Below, in pieces: positions 661-35,500 of a stretch of DNA of 64,000 nucleotides. The position numbers and the translations under genes are program-made. Origin of the DNA: Bispira polyomma. Its lineage: Eukaryota. Numbering within the stretch: the stretch's first letter is position 1; each line of letters starts with the position of its first letter. The notes beneath the pieces are model-generated. The model was not told the DNA's origin and made no database searches. It was given only the letters and a program-made list of their open reading frames with translations. Location: contig OZ287756.1 of NCBI GenBank assembly GCA_965649765.1, positions 66,898,001-66,962,000 on the forward strand. Reading direction: 5' to 3'.

Positions 661-1307
661 GGTTTTCAGCAAAACAACTCAGATATTGTTCTTGGAGGAA
701 TCAGGTGGCCCTAAAAAAGGCCGGAGGTGACACTTAGGGGGGAGGGGGGATTGAAACACATCCACCCCCCCCCAACCCCCACCCCAACCCCCCACCAACT
801 TCTCGCCCTCTGCTGCTTGGTAGGTGAAAAACGTGCTACTGTTTGATTGTGGCTTCTTGGGGCTTTTGTGTTCTCCAATTAAGCTGCTCATCAGTCTCCT
901 AATTCGGGTGAGGTGCTCTCTAAGCATAAGATTCATATCAATACTGAGTCAGGACAGGGAACTTCTTTATATGCTCCGCATACTGGTCTCTGTAACACTA
1001 TCCCCTCCTATGCTGGAGCATCTCGACAGGTCGTGGGCGTCTTGGCGTGGTGGGGACAATCCCTGTGTCGACGTGTGACCAGCTAATTCTCTCTCTCGGT
1101 GAAATCTGGTGGGGCTTGTCCTGATTTTTTTTTGCCATGAGCTTGCAAAAACGCGTCCTCTGAGATTCGCACTAGGTCTTTAATCTGTCATCTTCAATCC
1201 ATGGGTGGTAGCGAAGTCCTCTCATAACTTCTTCTTCAGGGACATGTCTTTAAATTGTTCGTGTAGCTTGTTGTAAAGCACTTTATTGTCTCTGACAAAA
1301 TCTGCCA

Positions 1308-6857: not shown

Positions 6858-7090
6858 TGTGATCTGGTCCATGTGCCCAGTCGGTTATTTTTACCTAGCA
6901 TTTACTATTTATGATCTGGTCTATGTGCCCAGTCGGTTATTTTTACCTAGCATTTACTATTTATATGATCTGGTTCATGTGCCCAGTCGGTTATTTTTAC
7001 CTAGCATTTACTATTTATATGATCTGGTCCATGTGCCCAGTCGGTTATTTTTACCTAGCATTTACTATTTATATGATCTGGTCTATGTGC
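6858..7090. repeat. 54-bp minisatellite, ~4.3 copies
   Basis: gatctgg starts at 6861, 6913, 6967, 7021 and 7075; near-identical units. Confidence 0.97.
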
Positions 7091-8019
7091 ACAGTTTTTG
7101 CCTGTGGCGGTTGGTGTGTTTGTTTTCATCACAATTGTACACTGCGTGGCTGTCTGATATTCTGGGCATACTTGAGAGATAGTGATATTTTTAAGAACAG
7201 GCCTAGTCATTTAACTATACCCAGACACGATGTTTATTCTATATTTTATAGCTACAGTTGTACATGAGAAATTATACATATGGTTAAAAATATCTAGCTC
7301 TTACCCTCTTGTAAGCAATTGTAATCAGCTGCAAACGAGTTTTAACTGGCTTCAATTGATAGCAAGAGTACAACCTTTGACAGCTAATATTTCTCTCATG
7401 TCATTAAATAATCTATTAGATATGTAAATATGTAGCACAAAATCTGTTGTATATTAAGCAACACACTGTTTTTTACATATTATTTTTTTATATTTTTACT
7501 CTCTCCTAAGACATTCTTGGCTGGCTGTGTAACAGGTGAGAGCATAATAAAAAGTCTATCTATCTATCACTGGGCTTAAATAAGTCTACGGCAAAAAAAT
7601 CAGAGTGGCAATACATATGGATGCCTTCATTGGCAATATAGGCTATTCAGGTGAACAAATTATTATAATATAATATACTTTATTGATTGTGTGTAACTTA
7701 AAAGAACAATAGTACATCCAAAATATTAAATACTTTCATAGAGTGAAGGCTTGACAGAAAAATTAATTCCCATTGCAGTGGACATGATTCTAAAAGTTCC
7801 CTAGTGTGGTGAGATTGAACAAGGAACGACAGAATAAGATTTAATGTTTGGAGGTTTATTTTGGAGGTTTATTTTGTTATCTGTACCCAGAGTTACAGTG
7901 TGTGAAATAATAGATACAAATAAAATTGTATATGAACACATATACATATATCGTTGTACAATACAATGACTACCACACATGGGAATGAATGGGAGCATGC
8001 AATAACAAATATTTTGGTG

Positions 8020-9300
8020 AACTTAGACCTAGGGTTATTACCCCCTCTTCTAAGCAGGCCAGTAGCAGCTAAGTAAAAATTGTCTGTGAAATTGGAAATT
8101 TTAATAAAATGGTTTTAATTTAGATTTTTACTTTTTACTGAACTTTATGTTTGTTTTTATACTTTGATTTTAATATATTTTTAATATATTTAGCTGTTTC
8201 TAATACATCATATAAAATGGAGATGTAATAGAGAAGGTGTGAATCTGGACCAGATTGCAGCAGAAGGGAGTACTACCAACAACTTGTCTATAGTCATATA
8301 AACGAGAGGTAACCAAGTCGAAATGTATCAACAAATCTGTCTCAAGCAGCAGACCATGATGGACACAGTATTAAAATCCATGTCCAGATTAGAAAAAGAC
8401 GTAGCAGCCCTGAAGACAAAAGAACGGGTATTACAACCTTGTGTTTCCAGTAGTCTTGCGTATGAGGACAGTATAGTTGATGGTGTGTCCACCACTACTC
8501 AGTTGTTGTCGGGAGCTGTACGTCTTACTCCAGCCCAGGGAAAATGACAACTGGAACAGGGTTATCCTGCTTCATTGCCAGCACCCACGCTTGTCATGTT
8601 ACTTGGAAGGCAGACCCCTTGTCCAGAAGATATCGGAATGGCATGCAGAGTTGCATGACAATAGCTGAGAGGAGTATCCAACAGTGCTCAAGATATCGTT
8701 CCAACACCTGATGTTCTACGTCATTCGGCTCATATTTAAAATGATGTCAGTGTCAGATTGCAACAGTATGAAACAGCAACATCAGCAGAACTTCTGAATG
8801 GTAAGAGTTATATTAAACAAAAGTCTGATCATTATAATTTAGCTAACACTTGTACTATTGACCCCATGTTTCGATGGCCAAACGAGAGAAGCTTAGGTCT
8901 TATTCACAAGAAGAAGGTAGCATTTGATGAGCTTACATTAGCACAATTTGCTTTGAGACAAATTCACAACATCTTAGAAGAGAAGAATGTTGCCATCTTA
9001 CGCAGGATGTTAGGTCAACCGGTCGATACGTTAAGGGATACAGCAAATATTTCATGGCAGATAGCCCGAGGCACGTACGCCCCCAGCATGCATAATGTGG
9101 AACAACCACACACAGAAGAGGGAATTGCATGTACCTTGCGTATACAACATTTTCAATGAAACCAGTGTAGCGAAAGTTCAAATCACAAGTTCGAAACACA
9201 ACTACAGTATTTCAACATATTTGAGAAAATTGTTTCAAAGTGAGCAAGCGAGAAAACCCACATCCCCCAATCATAAGGTTTCAAACTACATGGCAAGCCA
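8020..9300 (+). mobile_element. Tyrosine-recombinase retrotransposon relic C, gag-like region
   Basis: RLQQYET..NGK..QKS..YN..FRWPNE..KKVAFDELTLAQFA..SWQIARG..MHNVE aligns with the gag of the element at 26294-27537 (RLAEYET..QGK..QKLGQFN..LRWANE..FDELSLLQWA..MHDVE). Decayed C..FN...C....H..HI*ENC finger at ~9140-9240. Confidence 0.8.
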
Positions 9301-9959
9301 GTGATGGCAACATCTCAAGACCAATAGGACACGAGACGACTGGCAGATTATGTGACTGAAGATTCAAAGTGTAGTTCCAGGGTGCACAATGTTGAGTATT
9401 TTAATTTTACAAATGGTTATTTCGATAAGAAAATTAATAATTTTACAACAGACAATTAGTTGTTGTAGTTGTAGTGAAAGTAGTAAGAGAGACAAACCGA
9501 CAAATGACGACATAAAAATTTAAAAATTATTAGATTAGAAATTGTGCAAAGACAGTGAACAAAACAATGGTAATATTGTGAACTCGTTTACACATGATTT
9601 AGACAAGACAATGGTAAAAGAAATAATTTTGCAAGTCCTGAGAACAAAAATGTGTATAATTTCAATATTGATAGAAACTTTGATAGTAATGTACAGAACG
9701 GATAGTACAAATGGAGTATGCGCATGTGTACTATAGTAAGTCAATTGATAAAGAAAACATATATTATATAGTTTGAAAGAATGACATCCAATGTAAGAAG
9801 TATACAATAAAAAAACACACACAAAATTAAAAATAAACAAAAATACACAAAAACAATATATATATTGTACTGTATATATGTGTATCTATATATCAAAAAT
9901 AAACAATTAAAAAATTGTTGTTTTTTAATAAAAAAAAATATATGGAAATTTTAAATAAG

Positions 9960-10530
9960 CGTAAATCCAGGTTAAAGTGAATGAGAGATAATGGTGGAGA
10001 AAGTGTGGGACTAAAGCAGCTGCTTGTGAAGTTGACTGTTGCCATAATCCGTGTGAAATGATGTTTTGGAGGGAGACATTGTTATTGAATGCTGAGGTTT
10101 CACCCGGCCAGCGGAATGTGTGGAAGCCGTGTAAGACTGTTTTTATAGCTGCTCTAATGTGACAATACACTATGGAATGAATTGGTGCTACTGTCACAAA
10201 CAGTGGGGAAGTAGGTAGGAGTTTTCTAGCTTTTATGAGTTTGGAAAGTGCCAAAACTGGACATAAAAGTGGGACTTTTTTAGAGGGGTATCAAATAACA
10301 TGGCTTACATTGTTAGTGGTTAAATATTTCAAATTTGTGTCCATATAACACCCATGTCAATGACTGTCAGTCTTGCTCTTCTAGCTGTGAATACCTGCCT
10401 TGTGACAAGGACCCTTTTCTTGATGGAAAGTGTGCCCCTGGATTTTTGGGATTTAACTGTGAAGGTAGCAAGGTATAGTTGGAATGTTGAGCAAACCAAA
10501 ATAAGTTGTACAAATATTAATGATTTCATA
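9960..10530 (-). pseudogene. Tyrosine recombinase fragment of a Ngaro/DIRS-order retrotransposon
   Basis: FHTFRWPGETSAFNNNVSLQNIISHGLW..SQAA matches the YR at 23427-23654 (FQTFRRSGATFAFNNNISLQNIMSHGLW..SQAA). Many frameshifts. Confidence 0.85.
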
Positions 10531-10827
10531 TATTAACGTGTAAGGTAATATTTAACATGTGTTATTTTTAATTTATTTACAGAAGAAATCTACTAGTGCA
10601 TTAATTAGGATTACATAGATTCGAGTGGCATCATTTTGACAACATATATACTTTAATATTTTATTATTTACTCACAAACCACATTATTTGACAACACATA
10701 TACTTCAATATTTTAATATTTTAATCAGAATGATTTGGATGCTGATATATTTAATCATAAGATACATTATTAGACATGTCTATATGAATGTTTTCAGCAA
10801 GAATTACTAAGTATTTCTATCTTTTAG

Positions 10828-11840
10828 ATTGTTCACCTGGTACCTATGGTCTGAAGTGTATAAATCTGTTTCCCCAACTGTAAAGATAGTTGTCATCATG
10901 TCGATGGTTCCTGTAGAGCTGTTTGTGACGAGGGCTGGACTGGGGAGAAGTGTGACTTGGAGATGAAGAAAGTCTAAGTCAGTGATAAATAACCATTCCT
11001 ATACAATTTTGTTTAGTTTGAGTTTAACGAGAAGTGTGAACTTGGAAATAAAGGAAGTCCAAGTCAGTTAGAATTGCCCAATCTCAGATGATGTTAAATG
11101 ACATACAGCATGCCTTATTTTGTATTTGTGATATGCAAACACTTATAGATCAAATAGCTCACTGATATTTTACTAGTTGTTAAGTTTTTGTCTGATCATG
11201 ATGGACAGTTGACTGGTGGTGGAAATCAGAAGCAGATAGTTGCTCACGGTTTTCTATTCTGCAAATCACTTGTCATCACTTGTCATCAGAATGTCTACCA
11301 TAAACTTCTTCACATATACAATAATGCCAAGATTTAAATCATCATCGGAGTGGGAGTGCGTGTGTTACCACTAAACCACTGAATATTTACCCCTGTGGAT
11401 TATAATGAATCATAATACATGTAAAATCATAAAACAGACTTTTCTACTTTTTATGAATTAAGTTTCTTTTTCATAGTGAATCATCTATTCCTAATACTGA
11501 TAAAAATAAGGTTAATATTAGCATAAATTAATTGGTGCCCTTTATTTTGAACAGATGCATACATCATTGGTCTGGCTGTACCATTATCAATACTGGCAGT
11601 TCTGTGCATCGTCTTGATTCACTTTTGTTCTATCACAAAGATGCAGAACCGGACAAAGTGATGCCAGTATCAGCCATCAACAACCGACATCACAGCAACC
11701 ACATATGTATGAAAATGAGGTGGAAGACATCTCTCTTGATCTACATCACAGCACGTAATGAAGCTGGGAATTATGAAAAGTTGGAGTGTTTTCAAATGGA
11801 GGAGGAAATAAACCAGCCTTATGAGGATCTGAGAAATTGA
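10828..11840 (+). pseudogene. Decayed MEGF10/SCARF-like EGF-repeat single-pass receptor (two exons)
   Basis: Exon 10828-10960 after ttttag: DCSPGTYGLKCINL(fs)PNCKDSCHHVDGSCRAVCDEGWTGEKCDL, a laminin-type EGF repeat with a frameshift and lost donor. Exon 11555-11840 after aacag: AYIIGLAVPLSILAVLCIVLI (TM), then a frameshifted tail with MYENE, NYEKL and PYEDL. Confidence 0.7.
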
Positions 11841-13810
11841 GGTTGCAAGGAAGGAACATACATAAAATACTTGAATAACACAAACAATAATTTACTTAGT
11901 TTACACTTCTTAAATAAACAAAAAGTCCATAATGTATCTATAATTTACCTTTAATTATGTGTCCCAAATCCCAGTTACCACAATGCAAAAGCTTTGTTTG
12001 GGACCACCTTGATTATTGTAGCTGTGCTTTTGGAATTTATCCAAATCACAGACGAAAAAATTGTATGGCTCAAGATATCACTAAAACAAAGCTTATTTCA
12101 ACTCCCTCATCATTATTCGTTCTTTTCTGATGGCATGGTTAATGTCTACATGATGAATTACATTGATTGGTGAATCATATGATCCACTCTCATTGTGATT
12201 TTATACAAGAAAAGCATAAGTTACATCAGTAGAGAATTGCAATTAACAGTTTGCACTCTTATCCAGTATCGTATTATTTATAATTTATGACATGCGCTCA
12301 AACTTAAGCGCTTGCTAGAACATGTTCTACAATTTAACTAAACCTCTAGGTGTGTAAACTGGTAATGTAGGGTAGTAATTCAAGTGTAGCCAGTATTAAT
12401 AACTTAATAGCTTATCAGCTTAATTGGAATAGAGAACATAATTTCAAGTCATCTGAACATTACACAAAAATACTGGATAATAATTAGAGAGGGGTTATTC
12501 ATAGTAAAGATACCATCATAGTTAGCAATATTACAGATTTACTATTCATGCGTGATACAAGAAATACTGGATCAAAAGTAGATGAACGCAATCACATATT
12601 GAATTTATATAAATCTGTTACTAAACGATGACAATGGTAATATTTATGCACTGAATTTTGTAAATTTATCATTTTCCAGTCTAAGTAATTTAATTGATTT
12701 TATCACTTTGTAGTAACCGTGTCCTTCAATTTGTATTCCACTAGTAACTGATACAAACCCTGGGTTTTAACAAAAAATATATTCACCATTCATACATCGG
12801 TTATTAATTATTTGTTTAAGATCATATTTTCCACCTGTGTTAAGCTTTCTGGATAATGATATATGCAAGCATTGTGGTTCTTGGGATAGCTGAGTAGTGT
12901 TCCTGCGTCCGGTTTTTATGCTCTTGGGTGTTGTCAAGGCTGATGTGTATACTTTGGTGACGCGGGGTCCGGTGGGCGCCAACCTCCCCCCTTTTTGGTA
13001 TGGCTCCCACCCCATCTTAGCTGATGATCTGTATGTTCTCTGCAAGAAAAATCACAAAGTAACTGTTATAAGTGGCAATGCCTGATTACCTTTAAGGGTA
13101 TGTTCTCTGTTATATCTGTTATAACCGACAATGCCTGACTTTAGGGTATGTTCTTATTTAGAGTAAGGGTATTGTAAGGTCATGTAAGGATGGGTAATAT
13201 TAAGGCCTTAGATGAGTTTAAGGCCACCTTAAACAGTACATGTTATCATTGTAGTTATTATCTCAATATTTTAATAATCATAATGTAGTCTAGTAACTTG
13301 GATGTGCACATATTTGTTAGTATAAGTTTTATTAATTATAAAAATATAATTTCCCGCTTTGCTTTCACTGTGTCCTTGGGTTGTGACCTTCTGTGACATG
13401 GAAATGTTATTCCTTCATGTATAATAAACACTGTAAAAACTTGACATCTAGAAAGAATGGCTAATATTTTATGGTAAATAATCACCGAGAGTTATGTTGT
13501 AATCACATTTATTTATACAGGTATTTGCAGTTGTATGTGTACATTTTGATGGAGACTCGGTTAATAAGGTCCTCCTGTAAAACTGCGTCATAAATAAACC
13601 ACTTCATATGTAAATACGAATACCGGGTAACATATCATGGGTTTATATGTAAACAAATTAGAACTAAACAATATACTGTATTTGTATTGTAGATAGCATT
13701 GTTACAACTTAAAATCATTTGATTATTTGTTCAACCATTCATGTCTGGTAAAATTTAGTATTTCAGTAAATTATAAGCACAATTAGGGCTGGATACAATT
13801 AAAAAAATGA

Positions 13811-14020
13811 TTATTGTTAACCTCGCCCTTTGAAAGAGGTTGTTGTTTTCGGTCTGTGTGTTTGTCTGTGTGTGTGTGTGTGCCATTATCACACAAAATC
13901 TACCCTATGAAATGCATTAAAATTTACAGATCTGTTTCAAAATGGGGACCTCTACATTTGTACTACATTTCAATCAAATTGGTTATGAACTGTAGCTTTA
14001 AGACAAGATTCCATTTTTAA
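13811..14020 (+). mobile_element. 5' part of a non-autonomous Helentron-like (HINE-type) repeat
   Basis: ttattgttaacctcgcc...gaggttgttgttttcggtctgtgtgtttgtctg(tg)n resembles the typical 5' end with microsatellite. Matching 3'-end-type motifs (gc(g/a)gaggtatgcact) occur at ~15868 and ~39900-39936. Confidence 0.45.
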
Positions 14021-14317
14021 ATACAAAAGTACCACTAAAGATCTGTTTACTTTTAGCCATATATAAGAAACGAAGACAGCGTTCGACAAACCGAAGCTGC
14101 ACCGACTCCGAGATCGGTGATCATTTGCATACAGCAATCACCGAAGACACCGCTCGGGAATCTATGACCTAATTTGCATAAATCGAACACCGCTCAGCAA
14201 TGGAAGCTACACTGACTCCGAGATCGGGGACGTATACGAAATATGATGACGTCGTCACACGTCATGAACACAAAAATGGCGATAAGTAAATATTTCTAAA
14301 AATTAAATAGAAATAGG

Positions 14318-14561
14318 GTATATATTTGACATAACCCTATATTCATATTTTAAAGGGAAATACACCTTACATGTGATAAAATGGACTGTTTCTGGCTGAT
14401 ATACTCCATATATTATATAGGGATGTACACTACCATTAGTGCTAGTTTGTGATGTCATATCGGGGTAAATATATGGCGTATATCAGCCAGAAACTGCTTA
14501 TTTTATTGCAAGGTGTATTTTACTTCAAAATATGAAGTTAGGGTTATTATGTTATATATAC
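14318..14561. mobile_element. Fold-back MITE with ~95-bp inverted arms
   Basis: Left arm (ataaccctat..ttcatattttaaag..aaatacacctt..gtttctggctgatatactccatatatt) is the reverse complement of 14468-14561. A further partial arm lies at 14580-14618. Confidence 0.8.
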
Positions 14562-17500
14562 ACACCAATTCCATAGCCGTAAAATGGGTCGTTTCTGGCT
14601 TATATACTCCATATATATACATTCCTCTTCTAAAATTAAATACAAATGGTACACCTCACTCTAACCCCAATTGCCAATTTGCTAGTCCGTGATTGAAATT
14701 CCATGCATGGTTTTGCAGTCTCTGACTGCTATCTAACTTGGTACTTATTGTTTTGTAAGTCTATGTATATGTGGGCACATATCACTATAATAAAAAAAAA
14801 AATTCAATATAATCAGGACGCTTTTTAAATATTTTTTTTAATAGGATTCTTATGTAATATAATAATTTAGTGCACCTTGCTTGTTCATTATAATTGTAAC
14901 TTGTAATTGTCATAATTTGGCACTAGTATTTGTATTAACATTTAGTCATCTTAATTGTACCAGCACGTTCTTGGTGTTTTTATTGTGTTATATATTACCA
15001 TACAAAAACTGTAAGTGTAATGTTATGGTAAAATGTACTAATACAATTAATTTGCAATTTGATTGGATTTCAACACCTCCAGCTTTTAGACCTGGGAGTT
15101 CTAGTTCTAACTCAGACAGATGGAATCAAAGGATTTGTCACAAAATTATAGCATTACCTTGTGTACATCATGCACCAATAATAACATATATATTCACCAA
15201 TTTGGGTCATGTCGTCAGTAATACCATCCCGACACCAACCAACTCGTCACCACTAATACCAACTACTCACCATCAAAACACCAAGTCATCAAATAAATGG
15301 CACTCATCACGAAGATGAGCAATGTGATAATTACACTTCTACAGTCAAATAATTCTTTCACTTCATATACATACATACTTTTTATTAAGCATCCGATTTG
15401 GATTTAATATCTGATACAGAGCAGTAAAAAATTTACAAAACAATATTTTTCAGTTTGGAGGCCATTATTCCGGGTTCTGCCACTTTGGCCGTCCATTACT
15501 CTATTGAGAAGTTTCTCCGTGTCGGGATTTTATCCACTGTTATACACTGCTATGCATCTTAATTGAATCAATGTTGTGAAACTGCAATGCTTTTCGAAAA
15601 TTATTATGTGGTAAAATGATGAAGCTTGTATTACATGTTATGTAAGTTATTTGAGAGTTGTTCCAAATAATTACCTTGTAAATTGTAAAGTGACACAGTA
15701 AACAAGACATCTGTCTTATATTTACACCCATGTCCTTTTCACAAAGTTATAGTTACAGACCAAAATGATGAACCAATTCAACTTATAAAAATGATGGAGG
15801 TGTTTTTTGTAACAAATCTGTGTAGAAGGAACGTTCCTTTCACTGTTTTCACATTGTGGCGCCTCAGCGGAGGTATGCACTAGCTTTAGTGTCTTTATCA
15901 TGTTTGTTTAGGTTTTATATTTCTGCGAATGATCAAGAGTTTATATAACTCAATAGATAATCTTACAGGTATATTCCTTCTTCCCATATTAAAACCACCA
16001 CAGTCATAGATCACAAACCAACATAATTATTGTGTTCTAAAAGCTTTTTTCTATGGCATTAACCTTGTAGATGCCTTATTATTTTCACAAGGACACATTA
16101 TAATTCATGAATTTAGCTTTTTGCTACTCTTTTCAATTACCGATTGACCTTCTTTTGGAATCAACCAAATTTTTTTTTGTATGCGAGTGTGGGGCTAAAG
16201 AAAGAGGGTAGGGGGTACATATGAAAAAGCACTCCACTAAATTGAGTCCATTTAGACTTGACACACGGATGTGAAACTCTTTTATTGGATATATTTTCTG
16301 ATATTTATGGCTATGTACTAACTGTCCTGTGTTAACTAACCTACATATATCCGCATGAATTACTGGTTTAGCGGAAACAAGTAGGCTGATGAATTAATCA
16401 AATAATTGAACATTTTTTTTTTGTTATCTATTTATTTTAGTTTTTTTGGAGGGGGGGGGGGGGGGGTCGATTACAAGTTTTAAAATACTGTCAGATTTAC
16501 ATTTCTGTAGGGACACATACAGTATTTCCGAAATGTTGGAAAGTTTGCAAGGTAGAAGCACAAATATAAATAACTTTATCAGGCTACATAGAACAATATC
16601 ACATAATTGAATAATGAATCTATTCTGCACCAAGTGAACTTTACAGCTCAGTGCGTGAATTTTCAGTCCATTGTGTCATGCCAACTTTTTACATACATTA
16701 CCCAATTATATGGTATGAAAGCAAATGGTATTATATTGTATGGTATTAAATCATGTTTAATTTTACAATTTAATAAATAAGTCATTAGTACATGAATAAC
16801 TGGAATCTTAAACAAGTGTCAGACACAGACTACGTTAGAGAGTCTTATATCAGACAAGGTAACAGTAGGAGATCTAGTTCCATATAGTCACCACAAATTC
16901 TGGCATATCAACATCAGAGAAATTTAGCTAGAAATACATTTTTTTGTAGGAATTTTACTGGCATTCATTAGTTCACTGTAGATTGTTTTATCTTACAGTA
17001 TAGTTATATTTTAAGTACAGATAACAAGTATAAATTTTAACTGGCAATTCTTGTTTTACTCAAGTCAAAATGGGCCAAAAATAATATTAAAAGGTAAACT
17101 TAATTCTATGTGGAACAAAATCCAGTAATACACCTTATGCACATCTATATGTATGCATCAATACACATACACATATGTGTCCTTGACATGTTTAATAACT
17201 ATCAAAGTGGCATCACTTCTCCCCAAATCACTATACCAAACTTAAACCTATATATGTACATATGATTTGTGTCAATATTAGTATAGGCTCCCTTTACAAA
17301 CATCTTTATGTACAAAACCTTACTTTTGATAGGTAGCTTGTTGGGTGTCTATTAACACTCATTTCTCTAATTATGTTAAATTATAACATATACACCTATG
17401 TTTACATGTAATCCCTGAGTCGCATTTACACGAATGGATGCCCCAAATGTTTTAACAAAGTTCATCTGTGTCAAAAACTTGTTAATGGCCTAGTCTCATT

Positions 17501-17691
17501 AACATGTACCTATATGGCTATTTGTGGAGTTGAACAAATGAATGTTACATAAATGGAGTGGCCGATCTGTCTGAACATTTTCCTCCGATATCACATTTGT
17601 ATTTCACTTTTTATATCACTTGGCATGTCTGGTACCAGAAGGTGTTACTTGGAAACGGATGGGAATAGTTGAAAATAGGGTGAAAGATTTA

Positions 17692-18100
17692 TGTGGCAGT
17701 TACACTGTCCAAGTTCTCACAACGTTTATACCAGTTTACTTCCGATCATTAGAACTTGGCTGGTCGGGAGAGAATGGCGAGAAAATGTTCATTTGTATTT
17801 GCATGTATTTGCATGCAGATTTCACCAGTTTTTGACAAATTTATTCCCAGACCTGACCAGATCTAAGACGTTCATTACACGTTCATGTAACGTTTGCTCT
17901 ACATTAAACCAAATTAATTCAGTTCTGGCCAGATCACACACGTTTTAAACAGTTCAAAGTTGGCTCTGTCTCCTGTTATTGCCGATCTCACCCTTTTAAG
18001 CCCAGTTTATGCCTAGATGTTAGACGTTTCCTCCAGTACACACAGGTTCTCAGAACGGTGCTTGAATGGTCCCGAGAACGGTAACAGTGTGACTGCCACA
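17692..18100. mobile_element. MITE with 17-bp TIRs, PIF/Harbinger-like
   Basis: tgtggcagttacactgt ... acagtgtgactgccaca (16/17 match), flanked by TTA and TAA; subterminal short repeats (aagtt/cgtt/cgat). Confidence 0.8.
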
Positions 18101-19879
18101 TAACTGTACTGATACTTAAATACTCAGAATCGGGCAGACACACCAGATTATTGTGACACAAGTGTAGCAGTAGTGAATAGGCAATATTTGGAAACCTGCA
18201 GAAGGTTTGGAAAGGAAGCTAAGTTAGAATAGGTAGATTGATATTGGGTCCTAATAACTTCTTCAACCACCCCTTAATATCGTCATAGCGAGAACGTCAC
18301 TTTCAGAAAAGCATACCAAGGTGAAATGTATGAAGTCCTAGTATTTGTGAAGAAATATTCTATGGACTTTAAAACAAATTTTAATAATTGCCTAGAACGT
18401 CATAGATTTAATTTGGAACATCACTGATCTGGCTATTATTCCAAACTTTAAGACTTACAATTCAGGGACAGGCTGAAAGACATTGTGGCTCAAATGACCA
18501 CTTAAAATGGCGGTCAATGGGTCACTAACCCCAATAGTCACGTAAAATAACATTTGAATTTAGTTTGGTTGGGTTTTAGAAGTAATTGAGGTGAATTGGG
18601 GGTTATATGTTTTTTAACAACTTCTAAGCAGGCGACTCTAACCACATGGCCACTCTGGCCAAAAACTTTGGAAATGTGTTGATATAAATGGTGCCATCCT
18701 CAATCCTCTGTCTTCAGTTAAGGGGAATGACAGTTACTGGGGCTAGTTGGCTGTATTTGTCCAGTCAAGTCATATTATCACCTTGGATCCAAGTAATATA
18801 TTTAAATATAAATAGGGATACAAGGTCATTTTAAAATGAAAAGTTTGAATTTAGTCGGTAATCAAGACAGCAATGACATAAATATTCATTTAAGTACACA
18901 CGTTGAAACTCCTTACAATTACACAGTTGGTACATATCATTAAAAAATAAATGCATGTTCATTTAAATGTTTTGGTGCAAAGCGACCAAAGTACCAACTG
19001 CATATTTTACAACAAGTTAAATTGTATCATTAAAATATAAATATATATATTTTGTAGATTTGTCAAAGTGTGTATTCTATGTAGTTACTGTGGTTGTTTA
19101 TTTCTGTTAGTGATTTCCTGATACGTGTTCAATTACTGTACACAATGGGATTAAAATATATGAAATAAAATAAATTTAGAGCAAAAATGTTTCTGTATAT
19201 TCAGAAATATTAGCAATATTTAGTTATGCTTATAAATATGCCATTGTTGTTCTAAATAAAACCAACACAAAACCCAGTCAATGACAATTTATGTATTTTA
19301 TCAGGTGCAGCCTGGTATTGTTTTATTTCTGAAAAGGGCGCCGGCATTTCAAAAATAATATGTTCGGCCCTTATTGATTCATCAGAAGTATTCGACTCGA
19401 CCAGACAGAGGGGTGTCAGCCTATGGTCAAGTAAAACAGGTGATTTGCCTGCTGGTAATAGTTCTTCTGTTTCGTATCCAGCGTGGAAATGAGTGACTGG
19501 ATAACTTTTCGACATATTCATATGTCACACTGGCATATAGTAGCCATATCAACAGTAGTATACTTCACACTGTGTGCCTTTTTAAAATACAATTCTTGTT
19601 TTGTTTACCTAAAGTTATAATAATTTGTTTACTTCTTGGCAGCTAAAGTACAGCCAAAGAGAACCAACTGACACTCCCTTGACAACATATTTATAGCAAT
19701 GCCCTAAGGCTTCCTTGGTCTGACCACTAAGGAGAAGATCCAAACACATTTATTTGAACCCTTTCCACCACAAGGTGAAACTATTACCAGGAACAAAAGG
19801 AAATTGTTCTTGTAATAGGTTACACATTGGTCACTGGAACACAAAGTACAGACTATTTTCGGCATTTAATAATGATGAC

Positions 19880-20056
19880 GCATATCATTGTTTGAATGTG
19901 GGATTATGCTATACCAATAATTTGCTATTGCAAAGAACTGAAGGAAAATAGATAAATACTTTTGGGTGCATGTCACTGTTTGAATGTGGGATTATGCTAT
20001 ACCAATAATTTGCTATTGCAAAGAACTGAAGGAAAATAGATAAATACTTTTGGGTG
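19880..20056. repeat. 88-bp tandem duplication
   Basis: tgtttgaatgtgggattatgctataccaataatttgc...ttttgggtg present twice, near identical. Confidence 0.97.
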
Positions 20057-22306
20057 TCGACGACTTGCCGAAAGATGTAGGTTATGAATGTAAAATAAAA
20101 TATACCGTTGACTGCTATTCAACAACCTAGGGGTTAAAAGAGTTAAATATCCACCAAAACTTCATTGTTCCCAGATTTAAACCTACGCCCCTGTATCAAC
20201 CGCTTTTCGACAGTTGTAGGCATTATAAAAGTGTGCATAAATGTAGCCCAATCATTTGAACAAAAGCAAATGTAAATAATTCATACATATATAGAATACA
20301 GCTAGATAATTGACCTACTATTTGATGTTTTTTCTTGATTTATTTTATTCGTACACTCAGTACAATAACATGTATAAAAGACAAACAAAAAACAATAAAA
20401 TAACTCTAATTAGGATTATATTAACTAAAGATCCAATATATGTACAAAACAATAACTTATTATGTCTTATACTTAATCAGTGCCTAAATAATGTATTAAT
20501 TCATCAAGTTTGTGTCTATAATACAGTAAATGGTGAATTTGCCTTAGTAATAACATATAATAATATGTATTACCATTTATTGAGAGACAGACACATAACT
20601 TTTTCATAAGCCACAAGTGGCTGTCTGGGTCTAGCATTTAATCAATTGTATGATGTGTTTATATTTACCAGGTGAGAGAAGAATAAAACTCCATCTGTTT
20701 AATTGTTGTCATTTATGATCATACATTGTAACGCATCAGATGCCAGCTTATGTTTGCTTTTTTCTGCCAAATTCATATACTATAAATTAAAAGTTTTTAA
20801 AGATGAAACTACATCGAGTCAGTCTGTCAACAACAAAAAGACACGTGAAAGCTATAGAGACAAAATTACTTTGAGTCCTGAAAAAACTGCCATACATATT
20901 GAACTCAATTACTTCTTCAAAACACCCCCTCTCCTCCCCAATTCCATTCACAACCTGGCTAATTCAGTACTTTTTTGGTTACAAATATCCTTTTGAAGTT
21001 GCAGTGATTGTATCTACCACACAGTAAATCTATTACAATGACCCCTTTTTTTGGCGCCTGGCCCGAATTCCCACAGGACCCCCCTAGCTAAACACATTGC
21101 CTCCTTTAATATAAACACACACCTACACAAACACAGAGCCATACATACACTGTACATAATTTATAGGCGAACCATTAACCCTGAAATATTACATGTACTT
21201 TAATACATAACTCAGTTGAAAGGAATGGAACTCAATCTTCTTTGGTTAATGTTATTATTCCAGAAGGGAAATTTGAAAAAGAAAAAAACCTCATGAAATA
21301 ATCCAACATTCTCTTTTCTAAACGACTCATAATACTTTAATTACAAGATTGTGTTCACTCCAAAGTAATTTCTAAGTACATGTGCACTTAATTTTTTTTT
21401 TAGGATTAATATAATAACGTAAGAGAAACAAGAAGCGTCTTTTCAAAAGGACACATATGAACCCCCTCAGTTGTGGCCGGGTTGATCTCTTTTAACCAAT
21501 CAATCCATGACGGCCTTGCATATTATTTATCAGATGTTGGTGTCATTTTCATTAGCGGTGGCCTTTTTGGAATAGAACAATACGAGGCTGCACCGGATGA
21601 AAAGTAAACACCCTCATTCGATGTACCCAAATACATTAAGTCAAGTCATGTCCTTTTTTATATTGATCAAGTTATTATATCGATAACTCACAATAAATAT
21701 ATTGATCCTAAACAATAACAAAAATTATTGAGATACTAACTGAATCAATTTAGATACACATCTTTATTTATTGAGAAAGCTACTTAACAAATAGAATGAA
21801 AATGCTTTAAGAACTTTTAAGAGAGAGATCCTTTGCCCAAACTGTAAACTGAGAAAAATAACATGTCAACATAAATTTAAGACTGATTTAGAACTTTTTT
21901 TTTTTTAGGAAAGCCTATCTCTTGGATGTCATGTAATTGTGTTTTTTGTTGTTTCTTAATGTAGCAATTTGTCTGTCTAGTGTCTGTACACAGCCATTTA
22001 TGACTACTAATAGTGATGCTCGGACTTGTTTAATCAGTAACATACTCTGCATCCTCCAAGTTAACATAAGATCCATTGACAAGTTTCAAATGGAGCTTCA
22101 AACATCAGTTTTATGGCCAATGATTCTATTCTTGTTTGTCACTTTGTACCATCTGCTGAGACAGTTATGTTTTCAAGTTAATCTGTTTTGCTTATTTTAA
22201 GTCCACCTTGTCTACAAAGAAACAAACAAAACTGATCTACTTCAAATTTGTTAACTCGATAATGTAGGGCACACATAATAAGAACTAAGAATTAAAGTTT
22301 AAAGAC

Positions 22307-22626
22307 GATTCCAGGTTGAAGGATAGATCCAGGTTGAAGGGTGGATCCAGGTTGAAGGGTAGATTCAGGTGGAAGGGTAGATCTAGGTAGGAGGGTTGAT
22401 TCAGGTAGAAGGGTAGATCCAGGTGGAAGGGTAGATCTAGGTAGAAGGGTTGATTAAGGTAGAAGGGTAGATCTAGATAGGAGGGTAGATCTAGGTGGAA
22501 GGGTTGGTTCAGGTAGAAGGGTAGATCTAGGTAGAAGGGTAGATCCAGGTAGAAGGGTTGATTTAGGTTGAATGGTAGATCAAGGTAGAAGGGTAGATCT
22601 AGGTAGAAGGGTAGATCTAGGTAGGA
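22307..22626. repeat. 18-bp minisatellite (gatctaggtagaagggta), ~17.5 copies
   Basis: Read directly; purine-rich strand. Confidence 0.97.
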
Positions 22627-22859
22627 ATTTAAAATAAGGAAATAGTGAATGGACGAGGTATTAATGTTTTGTCTTTGTGCACTTTTAATTAATCAATACC
22701 CAAACTAGGATAACCTAAATATATAGATCTTTGCAAACTAGTGTAAGGCGACTATATACAAGGCAATGCTTTTCTGTAATGGTATTGGTAGTGAAAAAGT
22801 ATATGTATGCACCTTCATATGGTACTCATGAACTGAAACAGTCAACTACATCAAAAACT

Positions 22860-23120
22860 GTCATTCCCCTGACGAAGAGAGGTTCGAGGATGACCATTTA
22901 TCAACGTCCCCAAGTATATCTAGTCTGACACTGGGGATAGTATCCAGTGACAGAGGACCACCATTTTATAAAGTGGTCATCTGAGCCACTAAGCAAATGC
23001 ATGTTTACATCTTGCCTAAATTCATTAACCCACCAATTAAATTAGTGACTGGCATTGGAAGTAGAACGCCAGGACCTTAAGATCACCAGACTAACTCCTT
23101 TAAATACTCGGTCATGTGGA
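22860..23120 (-). mobile_element. tRNA-derived SINE, family 1
   Basis: Aligns with 55186-55415 (gaggatgaccatttatcaacgtcccc...cagtgacagaggacc...gagccacta). A 3' fragment lies on + at ~18665-18740. Confidence 0.8.
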
Positions 23121-23426
23121 ACCACACTATGGTATATTATTAAGAGAATGTAGACTTACATTACATGGCTATGTAAAACATTTTTGGTTATTTTACATGG
23201 TAAAATGATCTGAGTATTAGTAAATATATATCTATTTAAATGCAGTTTGCCCAGGTTGGTGAGATAAGTCAGAGGTAAGTATGTAAAGTAATGTGTTCAG
23301 GGGTCCAAATATAATGCTTCTAATTTGAGATATTTATTTCTGTACATGTTAGAGTATTATTTACAAGTAAAAGTAGGTTAAAAGTTTAAAAGTTCTAAGA
23401 TAAATTTTTAAAAGACCAAAGCCAAA

Positions 23427-23934
23427 CTATAAAAAATGAGGGATAGAGGCTGCAAAGGTGACTTGGACTGTGGAGGCTGCCTGTGAGGTTTTTTGAAGAT
23501 ATGTCCAGACAGCTGAGGATCTCCACAGTCCGTGTGACATGATGTTTTGTAAGGATATGTTATTGTTGAATGCAAATGTCGCCCCTGAACGTCTGAATGT
23601 TTGAAAAGTGTGAGATTTTTTAGGAATTCCTGAAAATGTGAGGACAGATGCCAAAGCAGAACGTATGTGTGTGTCTACAGTTGGTTAATATGGACGTGTG
23701 CAGGCAACAAATAATGGGTAAGTATCTGGAAGAGGCCTGGATTTTAAAAGCTGCTATTCAGGGCAAAGGTTTTTGTTGTCTAATAAAGGAATTTGTATGA
23801 TATGGACCTCACCTCTGGTTTGTAAGTTCTTTGCCCATTTAAGTATCACATGGGCCCCTGGTGGGCCAAATATCACGTCTTTTCTTAACAAGTGGGTGGC
23901 ATATGTTATCAAATTGGGCTCTAGGGTGGGGAAA
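23427..23934 (-). pseudogene. Tyrosine recombinase (catalytic half), element A
   Basis: HLLRKDVIFGPPGAHVILKWAKNLQ..IPLL..LCP; FRRSGATFAF..IMSHGLWRSSAVWTYL. N-terminal part deleted. Confidence 0.88.
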
Positions 23935-25300
23935 TTACATGGTAATGTTAAAGTTAAAAAAGTGAAGTGGGATATGATGCCACACAAACTCTTGTTTTAA
24001 CAATATATTTCTTTCCTTATCTGAGTAGTGGTCAGAGTATATTCTTGACAATGCGTCCGCTATACAGTTCTTTTCATGCTTAATGTGGTCAATTTGTAAG
24101 TTAATATTATATTGTGTTATAACAGCCATATGTTTTTAAGGCACAGGGCTAGAAATTCATCTTAGTCCTGTTGGAACCAACAACTAGTACCACAGCCATG
24201 TTGTCACAGAATATCTTGATTGTACTATGCGCCAACGGTTCGCCCCAGAGTTTAAGAGCTATTAGAATATTAAGCATCTCTATATGTATAATGGACATTT
24301 GACGGTCACTCACATTGTAGAGGGGGGAGGCATAAACCTGAATGTTGAAAATACCCCCTACACCTGTGAAACACGCATCTATATAGACAACGTTAGTTTC
24401 AATGTCGAGCTTTTCATTGTAAGTGATTCTGTTGTACTGTTTGAGGAAAACAACAAACCATGCAATATCTGCCCTCATGGCCTCTGTAATTTTGAATCGT
24501 TTCGCCTGGGCGTTACCTCGAAAGGCCATGAGAAGTCTGTTTGTGAAAGCCCTTGCAGGTTTCACACATTTGTGGATGTACAAAAGTTTGCCTAATTTGT
24601 CCTCAATTTTATCTTGTGTTATACTGATGGTGCCTTTAGGAATGTCTATGTCTATGCCTAAGCAAGTTACTCTGGTATTTGGAGCTGAAAGTTTGTCTGC
24701 ATTAATAGGAAGACCTAAAGAATCGACTAATTGGTATAAATCCTGAAACGCTTTCTCAGCTGTATCGCTGCTTGATATACCGACATAATCGTCGATATAA
24801 CAAAAGACCTGGTGGATTAATTTCTTCAAGGCATAAGCTATCATATCAGAACATCGCTGAAAAGCGGCCGAGCTGTGGACCCAGCCAAACGTGACTGCTG
24901 GATCCACATACTTTTCACCTTTAAAACATATGCCTAATTTGAGTGCGTCTATGGGGTCAACCCGCAAATTTCGAAACGCCCGGAGACGTCCAACTTAAAT
25001 ATCCTGCCACAGTACAAATTGAATGTTGTCAAATAGTTGCTTGTTGACATTATCGTTGACCAGTTTCCCCTGAGGGTATGACAAGTTAAGTAAGTTTCTT
25101 TCTCAAGATATTTAGTGAAGCAGGGTCATCCAAAGACAGGGGGAACCAAATTTTAAGTACTGGAGTAATAATTTATCTGGTTGGTCAATTAAAATTTTTC
25201 CTATTGGTCAATATTTAAAACCAGATATGAGGGGAGTGCGTGCCCATCTATAATTTGGGCACCCCCAGTCCTTAATAATGTTTGCTATTTTAGCCATCTG
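23935..25300 (-). pseudogene. Reverse transcriptase / RNase H, element A
   Basis: ORFs 24149-24967 and 23935-24129 carry YIDD and DIRS-type RNase H motifs; GCPNYRWARTPL at ~25250. Confidence 0.9.
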
Positions 25301-28300
25301 GTCAGTTGATGAAAATAGAACAGGAGCCCTATCTGGGCCTATAAAAGTAAAATTAGTGTCAGATAACACCAGAAAACCCTTATTCTTGTCAGGTAGGTTA
25401 ATATCAGTGACATTCTTGTTTTTGAAATGGTGAAATGTGTGCATTTCTGATTGGTCGGTAGGTGGCGTCGAGACATTACCTTGTGTGCTATCCACACTTG
25501 TTACATTTATTTTAATTATTGACTGATCAATCATTTCTGAATGATTTTTATCATTAACATCCAACATTTGGTCAATTAAATCTGTCACATGATCAGTATA
25601 ATTACACCCATATTTGTTAAATGACAAGATGTCTTTTTTGCTGATCTACAAATACTTCCTTTGGTGTCATATCACCTATAGCATTTGCCTCAGCAGTAAT
25701 CTTAGCAGATTCGTGGTCACCATAAGTGTATGTCACATGAAGAAATGTTTTAATAGTTTGTACTATTGAAATAGGGCCATCTGGTAAAGAGTCACATTTG
25801 AAATAATCACATCTTTGACAAACAGCATTAAATTTTTGAATGAAGAAATCTGTTATTTCCCCATTAGTAGATCTAATATAAATAACAGGCAAAATTTCAG
25901 AAAAAGAATCTGGAAAACAATGTGACCAATTTATCACCTGAATTGTCAAACCACACTTATTAGTGACAAAACCTGAACCTGATCTGATGTCTGTTTTTGA
26001 CTTTGCTGGAAAGCCATTCATGATTACATTATAACTTTAAAGTACTATTTTGACACTTCATGCTGGTTTTTGTGTCCAGCTGATTTTGGGCAAACTTATG
26101 GTCCACCAACACATTGTTATCGCAATTAATTTCCCAGTCACATTCAAGTCTTTCGCCGTGGCTGTACTGCCATTAAATTTTATTTCCTTTATATTACTGT
26201 TCTTTCCATTGCTAATAATATCTGATAATAGTATACTATTAATGTCGTTATTACTGTCATTACTCAATACACTCAAATCCCTACAATGCCTTTCTAATGT
26301 TTGCTCATCCAGTTGTTGGTCACTGGCCTAGTTACTGGTTGTTTTGCCTTCATGTTGTTTCGAAGAGTTAGCCCTATAGCACTTGAATTCCGAGTGAAGC
26401 GATTCCTTGTGCAAAACAGTGGAGCAGTGCTGTGTCTATATTGATCGTGATCTGACTTGTTGGTGCATTTCCTGGCATTGAATAATTTGCAGATAGTTCT
26501 GGCCGATTGTGGTTTGTATGACCGGTGGGAGTTGTGCGAATGGCCCAGGTTGGCCATTGCCATCTGAGCGGCGTTCATTCGGTTGAGAGCCCATTGTGTT
26601 TTGTCGCCCCACTGCAACCTGCCTTTTTCGACATCATGCATATTATGCAACCATGATGTTCTTACTACGTCAGCAGCTTCCCTTAACAACAGAGTAACTT
26701 GTTGAACCATGTTACTTGATGTTTCCGAATCAGTGACCTGCATGGCTTTCGACAGCTGACCGCCTGCCCATTGCAGAAGTGACAATTCATCAAATGTGGG
26801 ACGCTTTCAAGCTGTCCCGCCTACCCAGCCTTCGTTGGCCCATCTGAGTTTGGGATGAGCAGTTGGTATGTTGTTACTATTGAATTGCCCCAATTTCTGT
26901 CTGACTGGCTTACCTTGTGTAAGAGTACGTTGGGCCTGGGTCTCGTACTCAGCCAGCCTTTGGTTGACGAGAGCCTGGACTTCAGGGATGGATTTTAGAA
27001 TGTCTACCTTGGGGAAAATAGCTTCCTTGGAATAATCAACGTGTTGGAACGAACGCGCCTGTGACTGTAGTATGGGTGCTGGAGCACCAGCCAGAGGTAT
27101 ATATGGGGCCATTGTAGCTGATCTTGGCTAGGTGACACAACGGGAGTCGATTGGGACGTCTCACATGCTTCCATTCTGTCTGGCCGTCGGGTGATGACCT
27201 TGTTACACTTCTCTAATCTCTCAAACATTGCCATCATGGCTGGTATTACACTAGTTTCGGCTTGCATTGAGGAAGAGGCTGCTCTGTGAGTCATGGGGGG
27301 GGGGGGGGGGTGTGTATGACTAGCAGTAGTAAAAGGCAACTGTTGGCCAAGTTGGGGAGATGCATACTGAGTAGCATTCTCTGGGTAGAATGGAAAGCAA
27401 AGATTATTTAATACACTGTCATTTACCTGTCCTTGAGTGATTTTTTTCTTTGCAGATTTTACCCGAACACTACTTTCCTTGGATGTCCTTGTTTTAACAC
27501 AAGCTTCATCTGAAGGCATCTTCTTGGGTTTCCCCATTCTTTAAATAATACTCAAATTAAAACACTAAAACGTTACACCACTAAAATCCTGATACTAAAA
27601 AACAGCAACAATTGTAATCAGTCCATAAAATAACAGAAACTAACTTGGATTTCTTATTTCCAAGTTTTACTGTGTGTGTGCTTCAATGTCGAAAAGCTTA
27701 ATGGCGAATTTATTTAGGGAAATTGCATTGTCGAATTAAACAAAGAACTGGTTGGATGTATGGCTGGATAGACATAGCGAAATAAGTCAGCTCAGTCCCC
27801 AGGGGTTAAGGTAGTTTTAAAGATTTAAAGCGCTGGGGCAACTGAAGTACCAGACCCCTCTATGATCATGATATCTACACATAACTGGCCTCAGCTGATA
27901 TATTAACACTTGTGGTAAGTTTTGGTGGTTTACAAAGTTTGATTTGCGGCACTGTATTTGCAAATACCAAAAACTAGTAAGTGCAATAACCCCTTCATCC
28001 TATATTGCTTTTAGTAAGAGGAAATGAAGTAATGGGTTCTATTTTGAAAAACTCATCATGATACCCTTGTTATCTAAGAGATAGATAAGGTGTATTAGAA
28101 AGGTATTAGAAAGGTAACCCAATCAGATTATCACTAATCGCTCAGGCTATTTCTCTATGTTATTGTACTTTAGTATATATAGGGTATCTCCCAAAATAAA
28201 TATAAAAATTACAACTGTGAATTGTTAGTGGAGTTTATATGTGAAGCGTGTGTAGCAAATGTGCTTTGAAGAGTAACAATGAACTCCCAATTTAATACTA

Positions 28301-32534: not shown

Positions 32535-35500
32535 ATGGATGAAGAAGAGGTCCCCAACTTCCACTGGGCTGACTACCTGGTGTTCTTCCTCTCGCTGGGC
32601 GTATCCCTGGCGGTGGGGCTGTTCTTCTGTATATCTGGTATGAGGAACAAGGCCACCAATGATGACTACCTGATGGGAGGGAGGAACATGAACCCCATAT
32701 CAGTGGGACTCAGCATGACCGCCTCTCTACTAAATGCAGTCTTTCTGATTGGTAAGGATTTACTTTAAATATGTTGTGATAGACTAAGAAATCAATGGGG
32801 TGTCCAATTAGGCGATGACAGGGTCAGCAATACATGATATGATATGTTAGATTTTTAATATGCCTGATTGATGCCAGGCATCTTCTAAAGCGCAACATCA
32901 TTGACAAAGTTGTAAAAGTCGTAACCTGGTTCCAAAGCAAATTCGTGATCTGGGTGACGTGGAGCAGAAAGATGTCTGTGGAGGGTAAGCGAGAGTGAAG
33001 AGATGGTTCTTAATGTTACTTCTAAAGCCAGAGTGGGTTTCCTGGGATTGTATATTGGTTGATAAATTATTCCATAGGGTATGTTTCCCCTGATACACTT
33101 GCTGAAACACAAAAATCTATCAAAGTTAATAGATTCTCATGTGATTCTCCTAACCTGTGGAATGATCTGCCTCAAAATACTCCTGTTTTAAAGTTTCTCC
33201 ACAGGTTGCTTATCCACTGTACGGCAATACTCAAAACTGCTGCTTTTATCTATAAATACCTTAGTCTATTTCTCCCTCGATAATGCAGTCCTTACTTGTT
33301 TCCCTATACATGTCAACTCAATACAAAGTGTGGTATGCCTAATAAGGGTTTCTTAAGGTCCCTACCTTCGTACCATCAGTTCATAAGTAAAAAAGGCATT
33401 TCTAAAATAGTTGCTCATATGATGCTCCTATCTGCCTCCTGATATTCACTCTGCAAAGACGCTCAATCAAGACCTACTGTAGTTGGTACTGTATAAGGCT
33501 TTTCCACCTTGGCATCCCTTACCATTAATAGCGTCTCTACGGTGATGACTCATGTACGTCCAATGGCTGTATGAAATGATGAAAAAGATTATTCTCTTAT
33601 CTCATACGCATTATAATCCCTTGGCACAAAGATTAATTGCTATACAAGTTACATTCGAGTGATGTTATGATTACCTGGTCTGTGGTGAAGGAAATCCGAT
33701 TAAGTGATGTTATGATTACCTGGTCTGTGGTGAAGGAAATCCGAGGAGGGTAGTTGATCATCTCTCTACACAATCCCATCTTTCTGATCGGTAAGGAATA
33801 TGATGAACAGAAGCAGGTTTTGTGATTGTTGTTGTTTAGGACACGTCTGAGGTTTATGGGTGGCTTATAGCAACTCCTTCATGAGGCATCTATTTTCACC
33901 CATGACTGTTTGATAGTTAAATAAATCATTTTTAAAGTTTTGTCTATTTTCATCCATGACTGTTTCATAGTTAATTAAATCATTTTTAAAGTTTTGTCAT
34001 TTCATCTCACCGACATATATTTCAATACATAAAAATGTGAATATATGTGAAATAAATTCTAAGCTTGTGTAGTTTAATCTATTCCTTAATAATCTATATT
34101 CTTAAGAATTTAAAAATGACTACGGATGGTATTATGAACATTTGTGTATAATGTTCAAAATAACAGTTTAATCTGACAATCAACTTGTTGAAAGCTAATA
34201 GTTTATATTTAGGAAATCTTGAATAATTGCTATGAATCGTCAAATACTTCTACATGACTCAAGATTAATATAATTCTAACTATGTAACCTTAGTGAACAC
34301 CATCTTTATATACACATACTGTTGACATACAGGTGTTCCGGCTGAAGTCTACTACAATGGCACCATGTACTCCTTGATTGGTGTATCCTGGATAATCGTC
34401 GGTGTTATCGGCGCTCTTGTCTTTGTGCCCATCTTTAGACACATGAAGATGACCAGCGCATATGAGGTGAGTTTTATTTACACTTTTTATAACAATAATG
34501 AGTCACCCTTGAATTTAAAATTTAGTTGGGTTTCTACAGTTTAGGTCATATCACGTTGGCCAGATGTAAGAGTGGAAGTAGCCAGTGCTAAACCCACAGT
34601 AAACCATTGACCTATGACAAGTACACGACAAACAGGATTCGAACCCACATTAGTGAGATGCCAGTGAGTGTGAAACAGGCACGTTTAAGCACTAGGTCAC
34701 TGCAGCGCCTAAGGCACCCTGGAAGATTGCGGGTAAAAAATCCCTTATCAGGACTGTAGACATTATGATATAAGAATACCAGGCGAACTGCTCCCCCCAA
34801 GTAGATTCCTCACTGTTCTGACATATGTACATAGGTCAAAGGTTCATTTTCACAAAAACAGGTTCGCAAATGATGCTCCTACTCTAAGGAATAGTTTACC
34901 TCAACACATAAGAACAGCTCCTTCCCTGCATTCCTCCTGGAGTAGTTTAAAGACCTATCTGTTCAATGATGCATTCCCTCCATGGCCTGATTCCTGTTCC
35001 TGGTGGGAGTATTTGTGACAACTTCCTTCTGTCAATCACAATATGGTCGTGGTTTTTTGTGTCTTAGAATTTCTTTTGTATCGACTCACTTTTCCATCCG
35101 TAACATTCGTCTGCTGGTTTTGACTGAACTCTGATCATGAACCTTACCTTTATTTTGATTCTGGTTTTGCATATTGACTCGGATATACACTACAAATGAT
35201 GCCTTGCCTTCGATTGTGCCTTAGAAGTAAAACATTAATATTCACAGTCCAGCAGATGTGGCTTGAAAATGAAATGACAACACCTTTACATCGTGTTACC
35301 CCACGTCTCCATAGCTACCTTAGTGGTGACGAATTATTTCCATTTAAAGAGTAGCCTGTACTTTTCAAAATATTACCATATTACAGGATGTTTCATGAAT
35401 TTGTCACTTTTACAAATTTTTTACAAATTTTACAATTTGTCATTTCACAAAATTACATTCAATTACTGATTACAAATCGGTGTACCAAATAAAACACTAT

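Follow-up and report, generated by a model that had tools for sequence, protein, structure and literature searches.

A candidate mid-gag 5' splice site for a proposed Gag–tyrosine recombinase fusion mRNA in decayed Ngaro-like retrotransposons of Bispira polyomma

Elements A and B and relic C

The window analyzed here is a stretch of 64,000 nucleotides (nt) of Bispira polyomma (assembly GCA_965649765.1, contig OZ287756.1, positions 66,898,001-66,962,000 of the forward strand), and it holds three divergent copies of gag. Two belong to decayed elements, A and B, in which gag is followed by pol, encoding reverse transcriptase (RT) and RNase H (RH), and by a tyrosine recombinase (YR) frame; the third, C, is a gag relic. 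Judged by their sequence, all three are decayed Ngaro-like YR retrotransposons. The subject of this account is a candidate 5' splice site (donor) of the form G/GTAA in the middle of each gag, the slash marking the exon-intron boundary, together with a candidate 3' splice site (acceptor) where the YR frame starts. A sequence-only reading of the window had proposed that the donor is conserved in all three copies at the level of the nucleotides as well as the protein. The features concerned are as follows.

About 23430-27540, minus strand: element A, with gag, pol and YR.
26328-27540, minus strand: element A gag, with frameshifts and a stop, ending at the TAG at 26330-26328, beyond which pol is in frame.
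23935-26327, minus strand: element A pol (RT and RNase H), broken; Pfam RVT_1 at E 2e-8 and RT_RNaseH at E 0.002.
23430-23920, minus strand: element A tyrosine recombinase, frameshifted and with a large part of its interior deleted.
26908-26917, minus strand: element A predicted 5' splice site AAG/GTAAGC, last exon base 26914, phase 1.
23915-23935, minus strand: element A predicted acceptor, ...TTTCCCCACCCTAG/AG, phase 1 in the YR frame; the exon starts at base 23920.
41324-45600, minus strand: element B, with gag, pol and YR.
44564-45600, minus strand: element B gag, frameshifted.
42266-44560, minus strand: element B pol (RT and RNase H), broken, without a methyltransferase after RNase H.
44533-44566, minus strand: element B gag/pol junction, an A-run and then a 7-bp hairpin, with pol in another frame.
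41324-42242, minus strand: element B tyrosine recombinase, with a single frameshift.
45136-45144, minus strand: element B predicted 5' splice site AAG/GTAAAC, last exon base 45142, phase 1.
42237-42260, minus strand: element B predicted acceptor, ...GTGTTTTCCAG/AG, phase 1 in the YR frame; the exon starts at base 42242.
8200-9300, plus strand: relic C gag, with several stops; pol is unrecognisable.
8798-8806, plus strand: relic C predicted 5' splice site ATG/GTAAGA, last exon base 8800, phase 1.
9925-10290, minus strand: YR C-terminal fragment adjoining C, on the strand opposite to the C gag.

The donors of element A (ACACAAG/GTAAGC, encoding Thr-Gln-Gly-Lys) and relic C (CTGAATG/GTAAGA, Leu-Asn-Gly-Lys) are exactly as the sequence-only reading gave them, and element B has the homologous phase-1 site TTACAAG/GTAAAC (Leu-Gln-Gly-Lys). 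The three sites fall in one alignment column, after a helix of the pattern R-L-x-x-[YL]-[EQ]-T, and at each the glycine codon is GGT, split after its first base. Within its gag frame, the element A donor is the best match to U1 (7 of 9). Pieces of the three gags share 30-33% protein identity over 48-150 columns, and the DNA around the sites is as unalignable as had been claimed: blastn among the gags found no match, its sole match being 51 nt of YR between the region adjoining C and element A. That match is the YR fragment at 9925-10290, inverted relative to the C gag, which is 80% identical over 51 nt to the end of the element A YR. The step from three GGT codons to a constraint on the nucleotides does not reach significance on the window copies, since 27 of the 66 other glycine codons in the stop-free element frames are also GGT (p ~0.07); it is supported by the relatives described next.

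The candidate donor codon in relatives

Relatives were retrieved through an RT alignment as at least 18 loci on metagenome contigs (given L numbers below), and searches of the viral_contigs and genome_contigs sets gave no loci. The relevant part of gag is present in seven of the 18 loci, six of which have the aligned glycine. On this independent DNA, the comparison of glycine codon usage that the sequence-only reading had put forward came out in its favour: all six codons are GGT, each followed by AA (AAG/GTAATT, AGG/GTAACA, AAG/GTAAAA, ATG/GTAATA, CAG/GTAATA and AAG/GTAAGC), against a background of GGT in 274 of 808 glycine codons in the same loci, in 32 of 90 other Gly-Lys/Asn pairs, and in only one of 13 codons at three other conserved gag glycine positions (Fisher p 2.6e-4 versus the site). 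Two of the relatives, L002 and L004, belong to one RT clade, so the sites represent about five lineages (0.36^5 ~0.006).

The donor site occupies one alignment column in nine of the ten gags examined, and glycine stands in that column in 101 of 150 protein homologues. The residue after it is Lys in 79, Arg in nine, Asn in four, Gly, Ser and Met in two each, and otherwise Ile, Glu or Thr; every one of these permits a purine at intron position +3. The Gly-Lys pair lies inside a linker of variable length, and the lysine could also be kept for the sake of the protein. Donor and acceptor signals are spread over deep branches of an RT tree that comprises the relatives and one Mytilus protein, without named reference elements; element B was placed by blastp instead. 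A comparison of element B with three runs gave about 900 related contigs per run, which indicates that the B family is multi-copy. A word-index search with the element A gag as the query gave no match, and an ESM Atlas search with the relic C gag gave no usable match.

Two further observations concern these gags. The other conserved gag glycine codons (L001-L013) are GGC in 11 of 13, possibly reflecting avoidance of cryptic donors. At L002:264-728, gag has only 155 codons and lacks the C-terminal domain, while the donor and the in-frame TGA leading to a pol of 1029 codons are kept.

A candidate acceptor at the head of the recombinase frame

In 16 relatives, a simple ad hoc pyrimidine score was applied to all AGs within the 150 nt that precede a conserved YR anchor. 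The best AG is in phase 1 of the YR frame in 15 of the 16 and lies 14.7-18.7 codons before the anchor in 14; in the two exceptions, L013 and L018, a weaker AG in phase 1 is present at the corresponding position. Identical scoring of control windows inside pol and YR (n=239) gave a phase-1 best AG in 112, and the excess of phase 1 over this control has p 1e-4, or 1e-3 to 2e-3 when reckoned on eight to nine lineages. An in-frame stop is found 3-28 codons upstream of the acceptor in all 16 YR frames. Six of these frames lack a Met ahead of the anchor, their first Met being 27-100 codons past the acceptor, within the N-terminal domain. The YR frame begins 253-783 nt past the pol stop in six of the 16 relatives, which rules out frameshifting from pol in those six.

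Just 3' of the pol stop of element A, the predicted acceptor CCCACCCTAG/AG (23920) ranks seventh of the 264 AGs in the element by the ad hoc score. The acceptor predicted for element B, TTTTCCAG/AG, would open the exon at 42242, 18 codons ahead of the anchor residue, and is weaker, ranking 35th of 324; a better-scoring AG in B, at 42293, is upstream of an in-frame stop. The predicted introns are 26913-23921 (2993 nt) in A and 45141-42243 (2899 nt) in B; in the five relatives that have both ends, their length is 2404-3926 nt. The predicted introns have the canonical U2-type features of a GT donor with U1 complementarity, an AG acceptor with a pyrimidine tract, and compatible phase. No partner acceptor for the relic C donor survives on the plus strand within the element.

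As a separate observation near relic C, a short Cys-rich exon-like piece with a phase-1 acceptor is found at 10828 (plus strand), 2 kb 3' of the C donor and on its strand; the frame of this piece is broken after 18 codons, and it looks like part of an epidermal growth factor (EGF)-type repeat.

The gag/pol junction

A single in-frame TGA separates gag from pol in all eight relatives that include the junction (L001, L002, L003, L004, L005, L009, L012 and L013), the next base being C in five, and element A has an in-frame TAG at its junction. This arrangement suggests that pol of A and the relatives would be translated by stop-codon readthrough. For element B, with its A-run and hairpin, a -1 frameshift is the likely route, and likewise for the P0133 cluster, the closest protein family to B, where an A-run and hairpin likewise precede a pol in a different frame. 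Pol therefore seems, from these junctions, to be made by readthrough or frameshifting without splicing. A phase-1 acceptor for pol after the B gag (TGCAG/TG near 44535) was considered and rejected, as it is the 3' arm of the frameshift-like hairpin, and as the eight relatives pass from gag to pol through the in-frame TGA.

The Gag protein at the candidate donor

An AlphaFold2 model of the homologue P0001 (mean pLDDT, the predicted local distance difference test, 71.5) has a long helix at residues 68-97 and further helices to residue 199. The donor glycine, residue 200, directly follows helix 178-199 and is part of a loop modelled with low confidence (199-204), beyond which lie a confident helical domain and a zinc-finger-like end. 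In this model the donor position is a boundary between Gag domains; as the glycine is in the loop between the helix and the folded C-terminal domain, the splice would swap the C-terminal domain of Gag for YR at that boundary. Searches with the gag model gave no match at E<=0.001 in Foldseek and no clear match in the VIA fold search (best Z 5.1), both results being silent on novelty.

A splicing model and its alternatives

From the observed sites, their phases and positions, the codon bias and the one stop that separates gag from pol, a model of expression can be inferred in which the conserved G/GTAA is probably a functional spliceosomal 5' splice site for an mRNA that fuses the N-terminal half of Gag to YR. 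The unspliced RNA would be both the genome and the source of Gag, and would also give Gag-Pol; in A and the relatives this would happen by stop readthrough, in B by a -1 frameshift. A share of the RNA would be spliced from the mid-gag donor to the phase-1 acceptor at the head of YR, so that a single large intron (2.4-3.9 kb) is removed that takes in the 3' half of gag together with the whole of RT/RH. The product would be a Gag N-terminal half–recombinase fusion that retains the N-terminal Cys/His motif, the coiled coil and the helix of Gag, with YR in place of the C-terminal domain, and the Gag half would bring YR into the particle or onto the element RNA.

Several points weigh against this model. 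On the side of the codon, GGT in all three window copies is suggestive only, not being convincingly above chance by itself; one of the seven relative gags (L013) has no aligned glycine, the gag alignment of L012 is loose, and L001 has a second glycine seven residues on that is coded GGC, with which the count would be five of six. Donor complementarity to U1 is moderate (5-7 of 9), and better-matching GT sites exist elsewhere in gag of L001, L003 and L004. On the side of the acceptor, the median best AG score in the control windows is 6.8-6.9 on what is an ad hoc score, Met precedes the anchor in ten of the 16 YR frames, and the YR of element B has a Met nine codons after the acceptor. The proposed pairing of the donor with the acceptor draws on their matching phase and on the lack of any other route to YR. 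No Gag-YR fusion was found among YR proteins of 390-2000 amino acids, which is weak evidence with three matches, and no joint linking 42242 to 45142 is among the 15 listed of 132 joints in DNA contigs.

The competing GT sites bear on an alternative in which the acceptor is real and is joined to a leader exon or to another gag donor, G/GTAA being incidental or serving another splice. Phase-1 GT sites with an equal or better U1 match do occur in several gags, for example at amino acids 50 and 362 of L003 and amino acid 134 of L012, but they are scattered differently in each element, whereas G/GTAA keeps to its single column and has the phase that fits the acceptor, and the alternative is judged improbable.

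It is also unlikely that Gly-Lys is kept for the Gag protein, with GGT due to chance or AT bias and YR made either from a separate RNA or through reinitiation at an AUG inside the transcript. The conservation of the pair in homologues (Gly 84%, Lys 72%) is at the level of other conserved residues, the window codons are within reach of chance, and ten YR frames do have a Met ahead of the anchor; the codon contrast between the site (six of six GGT) and the other conserved glycines (one of 13) speaks for the nucleotides, however, the first Met of the six Met-less frames lies inside the N-terminal domain, and the phase and position of the acceptor are left unexplained. The least probable alternative, given very little weight, is that the constraint is real and serves something other than a spliced protein, either an RNA element or a U1 small nuclear ribonucleoprotein site that guards the full-length RNA from early polyadenylation, a role reported for the Arabidopsis EVD Copia element in the excerpts of PMC5580714, as it leaves unexplained why YR frames without a Met should begin with a phase-locked acceptor; it could also act alongside splicing.

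The splice from mid-gag to YR can be extended to a wider claim, which is tentative and rated slightly short of an even chance: that throughout a broad animal Ngaro-like clade YR would be made only as the spliced Gag-N–YR protein and Pol by readthrough or frameshifting, and that members with a hydrolase frame would pair the same donor with a further phase-1 acceptor, giving Gag-N–hydrolase. If this is true, the N-terminal half of Gag would be a shared packaging tag for the enzymes of the element.

Classification and comparison with known elements

By the definitions in the excerpts of PMC4157794, PMC8547959 and PMC7192593, which include split direct repeats in the order A1-[ORFs]-B1A2B2 (ORF, open reading frame), the gene layout of A, B and the relatives is of the Ngaro type. 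An RT/RNase H ORF with the Pfam domains RVT_1 and RT_RNaseH is present in element A and the relatives, and the RNase H piece of element B matches relatives at E down to 4e-47. YR lies 3' of RT/RH on the same strand in A and B; for relic C, the neighbouring YR fragment is inverted. Pfam found no match in two pieces of the B YR taken alone; the L001 YR is recognised as Phage_integrase (E 2e-10), and the B YR aligns with it at 40%. In element B, as in all 14 loci compared, pol ends 33-40 residues past the RNase H motif D-x-LSR, which leaves no methyltransferase, the domain by which Dirs1-like and PAT-like elements are recognised.

No terminal repeats were found in the window elements, which are decayed copies. 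The 5' end is repeated downstream of YR in L003 and L004 (211 and 713 nt), two of the seven loci scanned, the contigs ending before B1 and B2 can be resolved. No inverted terminal repeats with an internal complementary region were found in the window elements or the seven loci, the copies being decayed and most of the contigs short.

A hydrolase ORF (Lipase_GDSL_2) is present 3' of YR in L012, L014 and L018, which form a distant branch; none was seen in A, B or C. The best AG before this GDSL/SGNH hydrolase frame is in phase 1 in all three loci (L012:4511, L014:2226 and L018:2448), a hint only, given the relatedness of these loci and a null of about 0.47. The hydrolase frame of L012 has no Met before its catalytic motif.

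Long-range splicing past the middle of the genome gives retroviruses and gypsy elements their env mRNA, and foamy viruses their pol mRNA. The elements described here would likewise use a long splice to a downstream gene, but the product would be a tyrosine recombinase and the donor is in mid-gag at a domain boundary. With Ngaro-like elements (order DIRS) they share gag, RT/RH and YR in that order on one strand without a methyltransferase, and three relatives also have the GDSL/SGNH hydrolase frame 3' of YR; the excerpts of the published descriptions cited above present three separate ORFs and are silent on YR expression, whereas here YR is a putative exon spliced to half of gag. Dictyostelium DIRS-1 and the Dirs1-like and PAT-like elements also have gag, RT/RH and a YR that replaces a DDE integrase. 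DIRS-1 is described in the excerpts of PMC5633606 as having a methyltransferase, inverted repeats and an ORF2 that overlaps ORF3; here, in contrast, pol is without a methyltransferase and overlaps YR little or not at all. A parallel in mechanism is the Arabidopsis Ty1/Copia element EVD, a retroelement with its own donor and acceptor in the genomic RNA, partial splicing of which sets protein ratios (PMC5580714, in excerpt); Copia splicing leads to a Gag-only RNA, whereas the splice proposed here would lead to an integrating enzyme fused to half of Gag.

No description of gag-to-YR splicing was found in the literature searched, a set outside which lay the founding Ngaro paper, later reviews, supplements and Repbase-style notes. 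Goodwin and Poulter (2004) reportedly mention spliceosomal introns in some YR retrotransposons, so that part of the finding may already be in print. If the model holds, the real recombinase would be a Gag fusion, and annotated stand-alone YR ORFs would start at the wrong place; the intron would survive reverse transcription because only the unspliced RNA encodes the complete element. The claim specifies exact junctions, which can be checked in species with young copies.

Other features of the window

Membrane-protein exons occur on the plus strand in two or more copies (59559-59864, 49765-50094 and 32558-32754, with a 197-nt repeat, D4); Pfam found no match in two pieces of them, and they look like parts of a sodium:solute symporter. 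A broken LINE (long interspersed nuclear element)-type reverse transcriptase lies at 1296-3568 (plus strand; RVT_1 E 1e-13), and tandem repeats are found at 22237-22668 (18 nt), 6858-7095 (about 54 nt) and 40238-40446 (42 nt). Just beyond the 3' end of element B, at about 41034-41220, is an element of ~190 nt that resembles a miniature inverted-repeat transposable element (MITE), with 15-nt inverted ends and high contig depth.

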